Sequence record: NC_054926.1
Origin: Escherichia phage vB_EcoM_OE5505
Direction: 5' to 3' (one strand)
Length of the DNA: 64,000 bases
The translations under genes were made by a program, and so were the position numbers. Positions 14,518 to 63,089 of the stretch are shown here, piece by piece (positions within the stretch are counted from its first letter, which is position 1; each line of letters opens with the position of its first letter). The notes under the pieces were generated by a model, which ran no database searches, was not told the origin of the DNA, and worked only from the letters and a program-made list of their open reading frames with translations.

Positions 14518-16029
14518 ATGACTGACATTAAAGTACATTTTTATGATTTTAGTCACGTGAGAATTGATTGTGAAGAAAGTACATTTCATGAACTCCGTGA
14601 TTTCTTTAGCTTTGAAGCTGATGGGTATCGTTTTAATCCGAAGTACAAATATGGTCACTGGGATGGACGAATTCGTCTTTTAGATTATAATCGCCTTCTT
14701 CCATTCGGTTTAGTCGGGCAAATTAAAAAGTTCTGTGATAACTTTGGCTATAAAGCCTGGATTGACCCGCAAATTAACGAAAAAGAAGAATTATCAAGAA
14801 AAGATTTTGATGAATGGCTTTCTAAATTAGAAATCTATTCAGGAAATAAAAGAATTGAACCGCATTGGTATCAAAAAGATGCAGTGTTCGAAGGATTAGT
14901 TAATCGTCGTAGAATTCTTAATCTTCCAACATCCGCAGGTAAATCTTTAATTCAAGCTTTGCTTGCTCGGTATTATTTGGAAAATTATGAAGGCAAAATT
15001 CTTATTATTGTTCCAACAACTGCTCTGACAACTCAGATGGCTGATGACTTTGTTGACTATCGTTTATTCAGTCATGCAATGATAAAGAAAATCGGTGGTG
15101 GAGCATCAAAAGATGATAAATATAAAAATGATGCACCGGTCGTTGTTGGTACATGGCAAACTGTAGTAAAACAACCGAAAGAATGGTTCTCACAGTTTGG
15201 AATGATGATGAATGATGAATGTCATCTTGCTACAGGAAAAAGTATTTCATCTATCATATCAGGTTTAAATAACTGCATGTTCAAATTCGGTTTGTCTGGT
15301 TCATTACGTGATGGCAAAGCCAATATCATGCAGTATGTTGGAATGTTCGGTGAAATATTTAAGCCAGTAACGACCTCTAAATTAATGGAAGATGGACAAG
15401 TAACTGAGTTAAAAATTAATAGTATTTTTCTTCGCTATCCCGATGAGTTCACTACTAAATTAAAGGGAAAAACTTACCAAGAAGAAATAAAAATTATTAC
15501 TGGGCTTAGTAAAAGAAATAAATGGATCGCTAAATTAGCTATTAAGCTTGCACAAAAAGATGAAAACGCTTTTGTCATGTTTAAACACGTATCGCACGGT
15601 AAAGCTATTTTCGATTTAATTAAAAATGAATACGATAAAGTTTATTACGTATCAGGGGAAGTTGATACCGAAACCCGCAATATAATGAAAACCTTAGCTG
15701 AAAACGGTAAAGGAATAATTATAGTAGCTAGTTATGGTGTATTTTCTACTGGTATTTCAGTTAAAAATCTGCATCACGTTGTTTTAGCACACGGTGTTAA
15801 ATCTAAAATTATTGTATTGCAAACAATAGGTCGCGTATTACGTAAACATGGTTCTAAAACAATCGCAACAGTCTGGGACCTCATAGATGATTGTGGTGTT
15901 AAGCCAAAATCTGCTAATACGAAAAAGAAATACGTTCATTTGAACTATCTTTTAAAACACGGCATTGATCGTATTCAGCGCTACGCAGATGAAAAATTTA
16001 ATTACGTAATGAAAACAGTTAATTTATAA
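14518..16029 (+). CDS. uvsW: UvsW DNA/RNA helicase (SF2)
   Basis: 503-aa ORF; Walker A (PTSAGKS) and DExH-like (NDECH) motifs; sequence recognised; no ORF between inh and uvsW (segE position empty). Confidence 0.9.
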   Translation: MTDIKVHFYDFSHVRIDCEESTFHELRDFFSFEADGYRFNPKYKYGHWDGRIRLLDYNRLLPFGLVGQIKKFCDNFGYKAWIDPQINEKEELSRKDFDEWLSKLEIYSGNKRIEPHWYQKDAVFEGLVNRRRILNLPTSAGKSLIQALLARYYLENYEGKILIIVPTTALTTQMADDFVDYRLFSHAMIKKIGGGASKDDKYKNDAPVVVGTWQTVVKQPKEWFSQFGMMMNDECHLATGKSISSIISGLNNCMFKFGLSGSLRDGKANIMQYVGMFGEIFKPVTTSKLMEDGQVTELKINSIFLRYPDEFTTKLKGKTYQEEIKIITGLSKRNKWIAKLAIKLAQKDENAFVMFKHVSHGKAIFDLIKNEYDKVYYVSGEVDTETRNIMKTLAENGKGIIIVASYGVFSTGISVKNLHHVVLAHGVKSKIIVLQTIGRVLRKHGSKTIATVWDLIDDCGVKPKSANTKKKYVHLNYLLKHGIDRIQRYADEKFNYVMKTVNL

Positions 16030-17240: not shown

Positions 17241-17636
17241 TTATACTCTGTTACTGGAAGCCAGTTGTAGTTTTATCTGCTCAATATCATCAGGGTTATC
17301 GATGACTGAAAAGCGTATTTCTACTATCAGAGTATAATCATCATAAACCGGTATTACATTAACTGCTAATTTATCAATACGTGGCTCGTAGTTTCTTACT
17401 GCGCTTTCAATGTTACGCTCAACGGTATCAGCAGTAAGAGGAGTCATATTCTCAAAAAGCTGATCAGATAAATCGCATCCAAATTCAGGGTCAAACGGTC
17501 TTGAACCTTTTCTTGTTGTAATAATTCCTAAAAGACTATTTTTAATTGACCTTAATCCAAGTGATCTTGAAACGTCTTTGTTCCAATCCATTTTCATCTC
17601 TGGGTCAATATCAGAATAAAGCTTATTAATTGCCAT
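17241..17636 (-). CDS. 25: Baseplate wedge protein gp25
   Basis: 131-aa ORF; sequence recognised (T4 gp25 is 132 aa). Confidence 0.9.
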   Translation of the reverse strand: MAINKLYSDIDPEMKMDWNKDVSRSLGLRSIKNSLLGIITTRKGSRPFDPEFGCDLSDQLFENMTPLTADTVERNIESAVRNYEPRIDKLAVNVIPVYDDYTLIVEIRFSVIDNPDDIEQIKLQLASSNRV

Positions 17637-18262
17637 TACAATAGCTCAAAGAATTCTTTGAGTCCTCTTATTACATGAGCGTGAGTTTTTCCACACTCTG
17701 GACATTTAATTGGAACAGCCAAATAAACAGTAGGCTTTAAAAGCATATCTTTTATAGCTACAATATCTGACTCTGTGATGATAGAATATAAATCTTCTAG
17801 TTCCTTTTCATTTAAGTCTTCAACTGGAATGCTTTCCCCGTTAGCATGAATCGTTTCTATACATGATACTATCATGTGGGCTATATTTTTATCATCAAAA
17901 ATTTTAGGGTATCGGAATTTAATTTTAATGTCACCCAGTGTATACCAAAGGTCTTCTGGTGCATCTATTTGTGTATGTAATAGATTTATATGGGTTGGTA
18001 TTTCAGTTCCGCAGGTGCACTTCCAGGAGTTTTCGTGATTAACTTCTCCAAGAGAATGCGCCCATAAATGAATCAACAATAGTTCTGATTCTTGGCGATT
18101 TAAATCTTTTGCATTTGTGCAGTCTTTGATTAGCTTTTTAACAATTACTTCTACAGAACCATTATTTTTGGCAGTAATAAGTTCTAGATATTCTTTAAGA
18201 GTAAATGCGCGACAGTTGATTATTTTAGAACCAACTCTCACATCAAATTTGTATTCATACAT
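17636..18262 (-). CDS. 26: Baseplate hub protein gp26
   Basis: 208-aa ORF, T4 gp26 length; overlaps the gene 25 start. Confidence 0.85.
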
Positions 18263-19065: not shown

Positions 19066-20237
19066 GTATGTTACAACGTCCTGGATATCCAAATCTCAGC
19101 GTTAAATTATTTGAGAGTTATGACGCTTGGAGTAATAATAGATTTGTTGAATTAGCTGCTACTATTACCACATTAACTATGCGTGACTCTCTTTATGGTC
19201 GAAATGAAGGAATGCTGCAGTTTTATGATTCTAAAAATATCCACACAAAAATGGATGGAAATGAAATAATTCAAATTTCTGTAGCTAATGCAAACGATAT
19301 TAATAATGTTAAAACACGAATTTATGGATGCAAGCATTTTTCCGTGTCAGTAGATTCAAAAGGCGATAACATCATTGCTATTGAATTGGGAACTATTCAT
19401 TCTATAGAAAATCTTAAATTTGGTAGACCATTTTTCCCTGATGCAGGTGAATCTATAAAAGAAATGCTTGGTGTCATTTATCAAGACCGCACATTATTAA
19501 CTCCAGCAATAAATGCTATAAATGCTTATGTTCCTGATATTCCATGGACTAGTACATTTGAAAATTATTTGTCCTATGTAAGAGAAGTTGCTCTAGCTGT
19601 AGGAAGTGACAAATTTGTATTTGTGTGGCAAGACATCATGGGAGTTAACATGATGGACTATGATATGATGATAAATCAAGAACCATATCCAATGATTGTA
19701 GGTGAGCCATCTTTAATAGGTCAATTCATCCAAGAATTAAAATATCCATTGGCATATGATTTTGTTTGGTTGACTAAATCAAACCCGCATAAACGTGATC
19801 CAATGAAAAATGCTACTATCTATGCTCATTCGTTTTTAGATTCTTCACTGCCAATGATTACTACAGGAAAGGGTGAAAACTCTATTGTAGTGTCAAGGTC
19901 AGGTGCTTATTCTGAAATGACTTATAGGAATGGCTATGAAGAAGCTATTCGTCTTCAAACTATGGCGCAATATGATGGCTATGCTAAATGTTCTACTGTC
20001 GGTAATTTTAACTTGACTCCTGGTGTTAAAATTATTTTTAATGATAGTAAAAACCAATTTAAAACAGAATTTTACGTTGATGAAGTTATCCATGAATTAT
20101 CAAATAATAATTCAGTAACTCATCTATATATGTTCACTAATGCAACGAAACTGGAAACAATAGACCCAGTTAAGGTTAAAAATGAATTTAAATCTGATAC
20201 TACCACTGAAGAAAGTAGTTCTTCCAATAAGCAATAA
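19062..20237 (+). CDS. 27: Baseplate hub protein gp27
   Basis: 391-aa ORF, T4 gp27 length; ATGA overlap with gene 51. Confidence 0.9.
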
Positions 20238-40753: not shown

Positions 40754-42341
<1,588 letters not shown>

Positions 42342-42371
42342 AATAAAATGGGCCTTGCGGCCCACTCCTTA
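42342..42371 (-). promoter_or_regulatory. Hairpin-split ribosome binding site for denA / terminator-like hairpin after nrdB
   Basis: Minus strand reads TAAGGAG-TGGGCC-gcaa-GGCCCA-TTTTATT-ATG. The nrdB stop overlaps AAGGAG; a 6-bp stem with GCAA loop separates the Shine-Dalgarno from the denA ATG. Confidence 0.5.
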
Positions 42372-43547
42372 AAAGTATTTTTTAAAACTCATCATAACTT
42401 TATCATCAACATCATTATCAATCTGTGCAACAAGGTAAGATGACAATTCTACTTCTTGTGGCGCAGATTGAACATTATCAGAATTAAGATATTCACGAAT
42501 CCAAGGATATGGATGTTTAACCGGAGCATCGGTAATTGGGCATGGAAGACCACACTGCTTCATACGAGATACAGTTAAGTAATCAATAAAGCTCCACATG
42601 CTATTTGTATTTAATCCAGGAACATCTCCATCTTTAAATAAATGAACTGCCCAATCTTTTTCTTGGCGGTTAACTTCCATGAAAATATCAACTGCTTCTT
42701 GTTCACACTCTTGAGCAATTTTAACCCATTCATCGCCATCAGTACCAGATTGAAGTTGACGAATAATATATTGGGTGCCTTTAAGGTGAAGCTGTTCATC
42801 GCGTGCAATGAACTTCATAATCTTGGCATTACCTTCCATGATTTCCATGTTCTTATGGAAGTTAAAGGTACATGCAAAAGATACATAAAAACGAATAGCT
42901 TCCAATGCGTTGATTACATGCAAACAGAGGTAAAGAGATTTCATTAGCTCACGCTTCCAATATGTCTCATGCTCAATAGCATCTTCAATAACGTCTTCGT
43001 CTGCATTAATTTCTTTTTGGTATTCGATATCAGCTTTAGCGTTTTCCCAATAACGAGTTTTAATCAGAACATCATCATAATAACGTCCAATGGATTCAGC
43101 ACGTTTCATAATAGCTTCATCTAATACAATCTCATCAAATACCTTCGATGGATCAGTATAAAGATTTCGCATGATATGAGTATATGAACGACTGTGAATA
43201 GTTTCACTAAAAGTCCATGTAGCAACCCATGTATCAAGACTTGGGTCTGAAATTAATGACATAAGTACAGCAGACGGCGCACGACCCTGAATGCTATCTA
43301 AAAGTGATTGATACTTCAGGTTGTTAGTAAAAATATTTTGCTGGTACTGAGGAAGCTTATTAAACTGTGCAGCATCCATCATTAAGTTTACTTCTTCAGG
43401 ACGCCAGAAAAATGACAACTGCTTTTCGGTTAAATCTTCAAAAACTTTATGACGTTGAATATCATAACGCGCAATACCAAGACCTGAACCAAAAAACATA
43501 GGTTCTTTTAAAACATCAACTGGGTTTGTATTAAAAACTGTGCTCAT
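42369..43547 (-). CDS. nrdB: Ribonucleotide reductase small subunit NrdB (no intron)
   Basis: Continuous 392-aa ORF with the di-iron/tyrosyl radical protein signature; T4 nrdB is interrupted by a group I intron, this one is not. Confidence 0.95.
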   Translation of the reverse strand: MSTVFNTNPVDVLKEPMFFGSGLGIARYDIQRHKVFEDLTEKQLSFFWRPEEVNLMMDAAQFNKLPQYQQNIFTNNLKYQSLLDSIQGRAPSAVLMSLISDPSLDTWVATWTFSETIHSRSYTHIMRNLYTDPSKVFDEIVLDEAIMKRAESIGRYYDDVLIKTRYWENAKADIEYQKEINADEDVIEDAIEHETYWKRELMKSLYLCLHVINALEAIRFYVSFACTFNFHKNMEIMEGNAKIMKFIARDEQLHLKGTQYIIRQLQSGTDGDEWVKIAQECEQEAVDIFMEVNRQEKDWAVHLFKDGDVPGLNTNSMWSFIDYLTVSRMKQCGLPCPITDAPVKHPYPWIREYLNSDNVQSAPQEVELSSYLVAQIDNDVDDKVMMSFKKYF

Positions 43548-43598
43548 AAATTTTCCACTTAGTTAATAGATAGTGACTCGTCCATGAGTCAAATTATA

Positions 43599-49635: not shown

Positions 49636-49672
49636 AAATTTTTGAAATAAAAAGGGGACCTCTAGGGTCCCC
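49636..49672 (-). terminator. Rho-independent terminator after gene 32
   Basis: On the minus strand GGGGACC-cuaga-GGUCCCC followed by TTTTTATTTC. Confidence 0.65.
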
Positions 49673-62254: not shown

Positions 62255-62260
62255 CAACAA

Positions 62261-62277
62261 GGGGCAACGCCCCCTTT
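62261..62277 (+). other. Small hairpin between genes 37 and 38
   Basis: GGGGC-aac-GCCCC followed by CTTT, directly upstream of the gene 38 GGAG. Confidence 0.35.
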
Positions 62278-62288
62278 GGAGATAAATT

Positions 62289-63089
62289 ATGGCAGTAGTT
62301 GGTGTTCCTGGTTGGATTGGTAGTTCATCCGTAAATGAAACAGGACAACGATGGATGAGTCAAGCGGCTGGTCAATTAAGATTGGGTGTTCCTTGCTGGA
62401 TGAGCCAATTCGCCGGACGCTCAAAAGAGATTATTCATACCGTAACAGCAAACCACAATTTTAATGGTCAGTGGTTCCGTGATAGATGCTTTGAAGCTGG
62501 CGGTGCACCTATTGTATTCAATATTGTTGGTGATATCGTTTCTTATTCTAAAGATGTGCCACTTTTCTTTATGTATGGTGATACGCCTAATGAATATGTT
62601 GTTCTTAATATTCATGGTGGTGTTCATATGTGGGGTCGTGGTGGTAATGGTGGATACACTCACTCAGGAGGCGACGGTAACGGTACACAAGGCGGTCATG
62701 TTATTCAAAATGATATCGGTGGACGGCTTCGTATTTGGAACTACGGTGTTATAGCTGCTGGCGGTGGCGGCGGTGGTGGTATTGCATATCGTCCACACTC
62801 AGGGGCAAACTGGCAAGATATCGGTGGCGGTGGTGGTCGACCTTTCGGTGGCGGTGGTGGTGGCGGTTATTCCGGTGGTGCTGCTTCGTATGAAGGTCCG
62901 GGTGGTGGTTATGACTATGGTAACGCACACTCCGGCGCAGGTGGTAATGCTGGTGCTGCTGGTCAGAATGCATGGTATGACGGTGGTAAAGTTCTTAAAG
63001 TTGGTGTTGGTGGTGCGTCTGGTCATGCAGTGTTTGGGTCTTCTCCAACTTGGGGTGCTGTTGGAGCAATATATGGTCCAAGAGTATAA
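62289..63089 (+). CDS. 38: Tail fibre adhesin gp38, glycine-rich (T2/T6 type)
   Basis: 266-aa ORF with poly-glycine motifs ([22 protein letters not shown]) separated by short variable segments; unlike the 183-aa T4 gp38 assembly chaperone. Confidence 0.85.

Follow-up and report, generated by a model that had tools for sequence, protein, structure and literature searches.

Split ribosome binding sites, in which a hairpin stands between the Shine-Dalgarno (SD) sequence and the start codon, are textbook curiosities known from very few genes. In bacteriophage T4 the mechanism is established for genes 38 and 25 (PMC3014915; PMC7297116), both of which were identified as SD-dependent split sites by fusions and mutations (PMC3014915). 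The gene 38 site goes back to Gold 1988, as summarised in PMC3014915 and PMC7297116, and the gene 26-25 site to Nivinskas 1999 and Malys & Nivinskas 2009. A 2010 review of post-transcriptional control in T4 names only these two genes (PMC3014915), and a 2020 paper on rpmE likewise mentions no others (PMC7297116). The prototype is the T4 gene 37/38 junction, which reads UAAGGAGAGGGGCUUCGGCCCUUCUAAAUAUGAAA.

Here, we analyse the junction between nrdB, encoding the small subunit of ribonucleotide reductase, and denA, encoding endonuclease II (EndoII), in a 64,000-nt stretch of Escherichia phage vB_EcoM_OE5505 (NC_054926.1), which we call the window. A sequence-only reading of this DNA had pointed to a stable hairpin separating the SD of denA from its start codon; it named genes 38 and 25 as folding-dependent precedents and knew of no such site described for denA. 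The two precedents are correct (PMC3014915, PMC7297116), and our own literature search turned up no account of a hairpin or a ribosome binding site at denA either; an earlier mention is possible. Judging from its sequence and its relatives, denA probably adds a third case, hitherto undescribed, to the split start-site design known from T4 genes 38 and 25.

Results

Layout and predicted fold of the nrdB-denA junction

The window is a Tequatrovirus (T4-like) genome, and its positions 41900-42800 match Escherichia phage vB_EcoM_JB75 (JB75) at 100% identity, and T2, RB14 and many others at 97-99%. Its nrdB has no intron, and mobE is absent upstream. Reading the minus strand from 42371 to 42339, we find UAA, GGAG, UGGGCC, GCAA, GGCCCA, UUUUAUU and AUG in that order, exactly as the sequence-only reading had it, within an intercistronic region of about 30 nt (Table 1). 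The gap from UAA to AUG amounts to 27 nt; overlapping or abutting stop and start codons of the coupling type do not occur here.

Table 1. Coordinates in the window of the genes and RNA elements around the nrdB-denA junction.
Feature	Position	Strand	Basis
nrdA	45863-43599	minus	
nrdB, ribonucleotide reductase small subunit, 392 aa	42369..43547	minus	ORF list; named nrdB in matching phage records
nrdB stop codon UAA, first three bases of the SD-complementary run UAAGGAG	42369..42371	minus	sequence; UAAGG or UAAAGGA in nearly all junction types
SD AAGGAG, 23 nt 5' of the denA AUG	42365..42370	minus	best anti-SD duplex in the 40 nt upstream examined; sole strong SD within 30 nt
In-frame GUG, denA start in T4 RefSeq (144 aa), rejected as start	42363..42365	minus	T4 RefSeq annotation
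Hairpin UGGGCC-GCAA-GGCCCA, 6 bp (5 G-C), GNRA tetraloop 42355-42358	42349..42364	minus	folding, covariation
U-rich spacer UUUUAUU, terminator-like U-tract and 7-nt stem-to-AUG gap	42342..42348	minus	sequence; weak GGAG pairing predicted
denA, EndoII, GIY-YIG, 136 aa plus stop, AUG 42341-42339	41931..42341	minus	ORF list, invariant M1, PDB 2WSH construct

A 34-nt segment of the junction is predicted to fold at -16.4 kcal/mol (z = -4.4), and none of 200 shuffled sequences was equally stable. The core hairpin alone accounts for a dG of -11.6 kcal/mol, and its six pairs have probabilities of about 1.0 whatever the context, over a tested range of 55 to 210 nt. The 6-bp stem that the sequence-only reading had drawn is thus stable by RNA folding prediction, and, because of its energy, its z score and shuffles and its pair probabilities, we do not regard the hairpin as a chance feature.

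The best match to the anti-SD upstream of denA is AAGGAG(U), at -7.9 kcal/mol; the 7-nt spacer contains neither an SD-like site nor a purine run. Among the 6-mers that end 3-11 nt upstream of the AUG, the best is CAAGGC, which lies inside the stem and reaches -3.0 kcal/mol versus -7.2 kcal/mol for AAGGAG. AAGGAG is thus the only SD, as had been claimed, and the distance of 22 nt that had been given for it has to be corrected: 23 nt lie between its last G and the AUG, beyond the roughly 15 nt at which an SD would be too far away in linear RNA.

We calculated the spacing in the folded RNA by subtracting the core hairpin from the aligned spacing, in the definition reportedly due to Chen et al. 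in 1994. By this measure, the hairpin would present the AUG at 5 nt from the SD, the optimum, in agreement with the normal spacing that had been predicted for the folded form. For T4 gene 38 the identical calculation returned 4 nt, where 5 nt has been published, and for gene 25 it returned 10 nt, where the published value is 11 nt (PMC3014915).

Folding also predicts an extension of the stem in which GGAG pairs with UUUU (G.U, A-U, G.U and G.U), at probabilities that range from 0.23 to 0.99 with the pair and the context. Since these pairs are predicted, the SD would be partly paired with the U-run in free RNA, and through this pairing the element could act against initiation instead of promoting it. 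The extension had been overlooked in the sequence-only reading. AU-rich pairing of the SD and the AUG with the 3' coding region of nrdB also appeared, in folds of 81-210 nt; it had a low ensemble frequency and depended on the length of the context, and we do not rely on it. An Rfam search of positions 41800-42700 returned no family above its gathering threshold, the hits below it being due to chance (L20_leader at 22.7 bits versus 58.7, plus a sub-threshold mir-8).

The hairpin is conserved, and covaries, where nrdB directly precedes denA

Two IMG/VR scans with DenA yielded 49 loci. Where nrdB lies directly before denA, the hairpin is present in all junction types but one, which gives 27 distinct hairpin-bearing types; in the phages concerned, identity to the DenA of the window ranges from 58 to 100%. 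One layout is common to all 27: a stop codon, an AGGA-type SD (mostly UAAGGA/G), 0-2 nt, a GC-rich stem, 6-10 nt and the AUG. Within this layout the stems measure 4-7 bp and the loops are UUCG, or GCAA or GUAA in T-even types, and also UUUG, UUAG and CUUGA. The sequence of the stem varies (UGGGCC, GGGAC, GGGGC, GGGAGAC, UAGGGC, CAGGGC, GAGGGC, AGGGCC, GGGAG and others).

This variation preserves pairing. When 24 junction sequences were aligned, 95.1% of the cells were paired, and four of the six pairs had changed on both sides. Double-change cells numbered 24, as against 7.0 +/- 1.9 in shuffles, and the covariation score of 0.46 (0.16 shuffled) was reached in none of 500 shuffles. As a control, we slid the 3' partners by one to three columns, and the covariation signal collapsed. 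The stems covary, and therefore the hairpin is maintained as a structure; conservation of the stem at other nrdB/denA junctions, a check that the sequence-only reading had proposed, is thus borne out by 27 types.

The position of the SD is conserved as well. Among the 27 types, the strongest complementarity to the 3' end of 16S rRNA is always found 17-23 nt before the AUG, at the stem or just 5' of it and never in the spacer. Once the hairpin is folded out, 14 types have an aligned spacing of 5 nt, and 24 of the 27 fall within 4-7 nt. A longer hairpin goes with a longer linear spacing, as at the junction L014, where an 18-nt hairpin comes with 25 nt. The near-constant linear spacing of 20-21 nt could be due in part to shared ancestry, rather than selection.

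In one phage each of Krischvirus, Slopekvirus and Schizotequatrovirus, and in one Acinetobacter phage, nrdB has no denA behind it and the module is absent after the nrdB stop. On these sequences, the module belongs to the nrdB-denA junction. The denA of Krischvirus is preceded by a hairpin, a U-run and then GAGGAAAGGA, with the SD placed 3' of the hairpin. In Yersinia phage fHe-Yen9-01, which has neither hairpin nor SD, the stop codon of nrdB and the start codon of denA overlap as AUGA; the hairpin is present in its sisters phiR1-RT and TG1. In Tulanevirus and KP15, denA is coupled to another upstream ORF, with an overlap of 4 nt in Tulanevirus. The DenA homologues of Krischvirus, Tulanevirus and Slopekvirus could not be used for the covariation series, because nrdB and denA are not adjacent there. 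Given these natural variants without the module, SD-driven initiation appears to be dispensable for denA, and since the gene can apparently be expressed by coupling alone, there is room for a component of reinitiation.

The design is rare

We scanned both strands of the window for an SD followed by a hairpin, at most 12 nt and an ATG. Three sites emerged: denA, gene 25 and an ATG at 19962, which is taken to be internal to a baseplate gene. The gene 25 split site, at 17637-17672 on the minus strand with its AUG at 17636, was thus recovered by the same scans as denA. Similarly, 53 of the 74 annotated CDS of JB75 have an SD 3-11 nt from the start, and among the 21 that do not, a strong SD farther upstream exists only at denA and gene 25.

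Our scans of T4 covered 1-99.9 kb, 134.5-141.5 kb and 159-161.5 kb, the stretch from 161.5 to 168.9 kb lying outside, and the JB75-like window served as a stand-in for roughly 97-160 kb. Between 1 and 99.9 kb of T4 there was no further annotated start with the design, and the two weak matches were both within annotated genes. In the window and about two thirds of T4, the design therefore occurs at annotated starts only at denA, gene 25 and T4 gene 38. At the other hairpin-then-gene junctions of the window, located at 16028 (+), 62259 (+), 33013 (-), 49315 (-) and 29097 (-), the SD lies 3' of the hairpin. The junction at 62259 (+) is that of a T2-type gene 38.

Which codon starts denA

In the T4 RefSeq record (NC_000866.4), denA begins at the GUG inside GGAGUG and encodes 144 aa; in the records of JB75 and phage 107 it begins at the AUG and encodes 136 aa. 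If the GUG at 42365-42363 were the start, the hairpin would be coding sequence. The RefSeq annotation speaks for this codon, as does the frame, which is free of stops up to the AUG in the window. Against it, the first G of this codon is also the last base of the SD, which leaves no spacing at all, and an in-frame start at -24 exists in only four of the 27 junction types, several types having in-frame stops before the AUG. Moreover, Met-1 of the 136-aa form is invariant in an alignment of 16 sequences, and the crystallised enzyme (PDB 2WSH) consists of a His tag followed by MKEIATEY, i.e. the AUG form. We thus rejected the GUG, and find initiation there scarcely credible.

The annotations of this locus are inconsistent beyond the choice of codon: next to the 144-aa GUG form in T4 RefSeq, there is a terminator in the JB75 record, and in that of phage 107 an automated ribosome binding site placed within the stem.

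Terminator features and transcription of denA

UUUUAUU follows directly 3' of the GC-rich stem-loop, with six U in 8 nt. On a d'Aubenton-Carafa-style score, which combines modern energies with the old formula and is a relative measure only, the hairpin obtains +24.7, the three best-scoring reference terminator hairpins of the window obtaining 20-36; clear terminators of comparable score lie at 49672, 33894 and 11042 (-). A simple terminator scanner missed the hairpin because the G.U-extended stem absorbed the Us, and we rescored it with our own script. Two phage records, one of them that of JB75, annotate the hairpin as a terminator.

Across the relatives, the spacers are 64% U, compared with 31% U and 42% A before other starts. 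Nonetheless, the terminator score exceeds zero in only 11 of the 27 junction types, the features being weak or absent in the other 16. In the Serratia phages PS2 and Muldoon the U-run is absent (the spacers are GUAAAGCU and AUAAAGCU), and SD, hairpin, 8 nt and AUG are kept. The remark of the sequence-only reading that the hairpin and its U-run resemble an intrinsic terminator of nrdB fits the window by its score and extends to a part of the relatives only.

Crude regular-expression scans of the nrdA-denA interval found no late, MotA-type or early promoter motif, weak promoters being possible; a MotA-type motif lies just 3' of denA, ahead of rnlA. Taken together, these two results make denA look like the last, read-through-dependent gene of its unit. 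In a T4 dual-omics study, denA RNA falls in the 'middle' class and that of nrdA, nrdB and rnlA in the 'early' class (PMC9697503 Table S2). The difference between denA and nrdB hints, indirectly, at a discontinuity at their junction. The mobE paper of Wilson and Edgell deals with a different terminator.

Discussion

A probable split ribosome binding site for denA

On balance, we favour the view that the nrdB-denA intercistronic region is a gene 38-type split (non-contiguous) ribosome binding site, which in T-even types probably serves at the same time as a leaky terminator or as a stabiliser of the 3' end. Its SD, UAAGGAG, begins with the nrdB stop codon and would pair with the 3' end of 16S rRNA, while the 16-nt GC/tetraloop hairpin would stay folded and loop out. 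The AUG, 23 nt away in the linear RNA, would thereby come to lie about 5 nt from the SD in aligned spacing, and translation from 42341 would yield the 136-aa DenA. The data show the sequence, its stable predicted fold, the covariation, the position of the SD, the conserved geometry, the rarity of the design and its match to that of gene 38; that ribosomes employ this SD with the hairpin folded in between is our inference. Takyar et al. in 2005 reportedly placed the mRNA entry site of the ribosome about 11 nt from the first P-site nucleotide; at that distance, a ribosome standing on the nrdB UAA would reach only the first pair of the stem, and the hairpin could persist while nrdB is being translated.

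In T-even types, hairpin and UUUUAUU would probably act in addition as a partial intrinsic terminator, or stabilise the 3' end of the nrdA-nrdB mRNA. RNA polymerase would then terminate at the hairpin at some frequency. Because denA has no recognisable promoter, the toxic nuclease would come only from read-through transcripts, at a lower level.

Could the element be nothing but a terminator or a stabiliser of the nrdA-nrdB 3' end? The AGGA would then be incidental, and denA would be weakly translated without a functional SD, for example through S1 on the U-rich leader. Such a role would account for the GC stem and UUUUAUU scoring like the best reference hairpins of the window, for spacers about twice as rich in U as those before other starts, for the two records that annotate a terminator and for the RNA kinetics of denA, unlike those of nrdB in the published T4 data; a low level of the nuclease would also be acceptable to the phage, the enzyme being toxic. 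However, it would leave UAAGG(A), directly 5' of the stem in 27 of 27 types, conserved although it is non-coding, and it would not predict that the folded spacing clusters at the 5-nt optimum. PS2 and Muldoon retain the rest of the module without a U-run, the score is non-positive in 16 of the 27 types, and nrdB has no such hairpin where denA is not next. Ordinary terminator-to-gene junctions in the same genome, moreover, have their own SD past the hairpin. We thus consider a pure terminator unlikely. A different possibility is coupling by termination and reinitiation, in which ribosomes that end nrdB at the SD-embedded UAA restart at the AUG 27 nt on, retained or positioned by the hairpin and the SD. 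In fact, the stop codon is part of the SD both here and at the T4 gene 37/38 junction, relatives without the hairpin have overlapping stops and starts (AUGA in fHe-Yen9-01, 4 nt in Tulanevirus), and the stem begins 8 nt past the first base of the UAA, at about the mRNA entry channel of a terminating ribosome, judging from its known footprint. But the prototypes at genes 38 and 25 proved by fusions and mutations to be SD-dependent split sites (PMC3014915), the sequence fits reinitiation and de novo initiation alike, and coupling is compatible with a split site, not exclusive of it. As the explanation of the element in its own right, we find it quite improbable.

The hairpin might instead be chiefly a negative element, which would hold down synthesis of the toxic nuclease by keeping SD and AUG far apart and by letting GGAG pair with the U-run. 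The GGAG of T-even types, at 42368-42365 in the window, may also be a site for RegB, which would shut denA off; in early T4 mRNAs, RegB cleaves at GGAG where this motif is part of the SD (PMC9409239). The predicted GGAG:UUUU pairing and the fact that EndoII is a nuclease are both in line with such a function. Yet the weak lower stem adds only about 5 kcal/mol (-16.4 versus -11.6), less than the -7.9 kcal/mol of the duplex between SD and anti-SD, the pairing between SD and spacer is not conserved among relatives, and GGAG stands 5' of the stem in only six of the 27 junction types. The functional gene 38 site is predicted to have the same partial pairing. Repression as the main function thus seems very doubtful to us.

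Implications of a probable split site at denA

The split site that we favour explains why denA has been annotated inconsistently, and it argues for the 136-aa form of the protein. More generally, gene finders that accept only starts with an SD at a distance of 5-10 nt will annotate sites of this kind wrongly. As a probable third T4 case accompanied by 27 natural variants, denA offers a covariation series on how the 30S subunit makes room for a hairpin that stands between SD and P site. If the terminator role is true as well, the phage would limit a nuclease for host DNA by means of one compact RNA element.

We also envision, more tentatively, a strictly bifunctional element: a single 16-nt hairpin, conserved across Tevenvirinae, might halt most polymerases after nrdB, set a low ratio of denA to nrdB mRNA and serve as the obligatory spacer between SD and AUG on the RNA that is read through. 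This is possible rather than probable. If it is true, one structure couples transcriptional attenuation to translational activation. Since the module also stands at the gene 37/38 junction, which is unrelated, it would then be a design of general use in T-even phages that arose by convergent evolution, and it may be suited to handing over ribosomes that terminate on the upstream gene.

Comparison with known systems

The denA hairpin has much in common with the intrinsic terminators of T4-like phages that carry UUCG or GNRA loops, namely a GC stem of 5-7 bp, a stable tetraloop, a U-run and a position a few nt past a stop codon. Unlike at these terminators, a start codon follows 7 nt past the stem with neither SD nor promoter between, the SD is conserved 5' of the stem, and the U-run is not kept in all relatives. 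A stable hairpin is also tolerated in the mRNA track of the ribosome in the initiation regions of E. coli rpmE and thrS, where it likewise arranges the elements of initiation (PMC7297116); rpmE and thrS, however, are cellular genes with an autoregulatory protein ligand.

With T4 gene 25, denA shares the order of SD (GAGGA at gene 25), hairpin, short spacer (8 nt at gene 25) and AUG, and a site that is kept in close T-even phages and lost in distant ones (for gene 25, PMC3014915). The two differ in the hairpin itself, which at gene 25 is AU-rich and weak (-9.3 kcal/mol, z = -1.9, versus -16.4 kcal/mol and z = -3.8 at denA in the same comparison). The gene 25 hairpin also lies inside the coding sequence of gene 26, with a UAAUG stop/start overlap, so that upstream ribosomes must melt it, and its folded spacing is 10-11 nt as compared with about 5 nt at denA.

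The closest counterpart is gene 38, whose design is nearly identical to that of denA. At both junctions the UAA of the upstream gene is embedded in UAAGGAG, the start reads AUGAAA and a GC-rich hairpin with an extra-stable tetraloop lies wholly between SD and AUG, with a linear spacing of 22-23 nt and a folded aligned spacing of 4-5 nt. RNAfold predicts the 3' part of the SD to pair at the base of the stem in both cases; since the functional gene 38 site is predicted to do so, this pairing is no argument against the function of the denA site. There are differences: the gene 38 spacer, CUAAAU, is not U-rich and thus provides no terminator-like tail, its loop is UUCG where the T-even denA loop is GCAA, and the two genes differ in context, gene 38 lying in a unit that is co-transcribed late and denA, a prereplicative gene for a nuclease, lying behind nrdB. 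While gene 38 is supported by mutations, the likeness of denA to it is one of sequence and predicted fold, and this likeness is close: by manual count, one of the denA junctions (L023) has about 30 of 35 bases in common with the T4 gene 37/38 junction.

The nrdB-denA junction in other phages

Yersinia phage fHe-Yen9-01 offers a natural variant of the junction that has neither a hairpin nor a Shine-Dalgarno (SD) sequence (comparison locus L028:1440-1510); instead, the denA start is overlapped by the nrdB stop (UUAUGA). Its sister phages phiR1-RT and TG1 retain a GGGAG-loop-CUCCC hairpin, and fHe-Yen9-01 nrdB diverges from theirs, which suggests that this gene was replaced through recombination. 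A different variant is found in Serratia phages PS2 and Muldoon (loci L033 and L034, about 35 nt before position 1501), which keep the SD, the hairpin, the 8 nt and the AUG but carry GUAAAGCU or AUAAAGCU in place of the U-run. Judged from their sequences, these phages have retained the predicted geometry of the ribosome binding site and lost the terminator-like tail.

The denA start codon itself is annotated in two ways. T4 RefSeq (locus L002, NC_000866.4 137517-137951) gives a protein of 144 aa initiated at a GUG within the SD/hairpin, whereas a 136-aa protein beginning at the AUG is given for JB75, phage 107 and PDB 2WSH. We consider that the T4 RefSeq start is probably wrong.

Split sites and gene 38

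Because our scans recovered the known split site of gene 25, we used it as their positive control. In the window this site reads GAGGA, CUCAAAG-AAUU-CUUUGAG, CUAUUGUA and AUG, the gene 26 stop overlapping the gene 25 start (UAAUG). Gene 38 comes in two types: T4 gene 38 has a split site, UAAGGAG-hairpin-AUG (locus L058:620-652; T4 159619-159651), whereas the T2-type gene of the window shows the ordinary order, in which the hairpin AAGGGG-CAACGC-CCCCUU precedes GGAG and the AUG. Thus, the same parts are oppositely arranged in the two types.

Features located in the window
Feature	Position	Strand	Remarks
Gene 26-25 split ribosome binding site	17637-17672	-	already known; recovered by scans
Paralogue, 683 aa	24931-26982	-	tandem with next
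Paralogue, 685 aa	26986-29043	-	
MotA-box-like motif TGCTTCCACATGGAGTGTGGTACTAT	41905-41930	-	directly after denA stop, ahead of rnlA (gene 63)
Weak hairpin UGACUCAUGGACGAGUCA	43548-43598	-	short nrdA-nrdB gap; flagged by terminator scan
Start region of T2-type gene 38 (266 aa)	62259-62291	+	hairpin, GGAG, AUG

Genomic and transcriptional context

Between about 14 and 42 kb, identity with JB75 (MH355584.1) is not complete throughout, and gene coordinates shift by ~114 bp between the denA and uvsW regions; therefore, indels separate the two genomes. Both tandem paralogues are annotated in JB75 as RNA polymerase ADP-ribosyltransferase Alt.

In a T4 time course, denA RNA (T4 137517-137951) falls in the 'middle' class and the flanking nrdA, nrdB and rnlA in the 'early' class (PMC9697503 Table S2). 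The MotA-box-like motif, which contains a CCACA/TGTGG inverted repeat, is probably the rnlA middle promoter. T4 has mobE and an nrdB intron, whereas the window phage carries neither.
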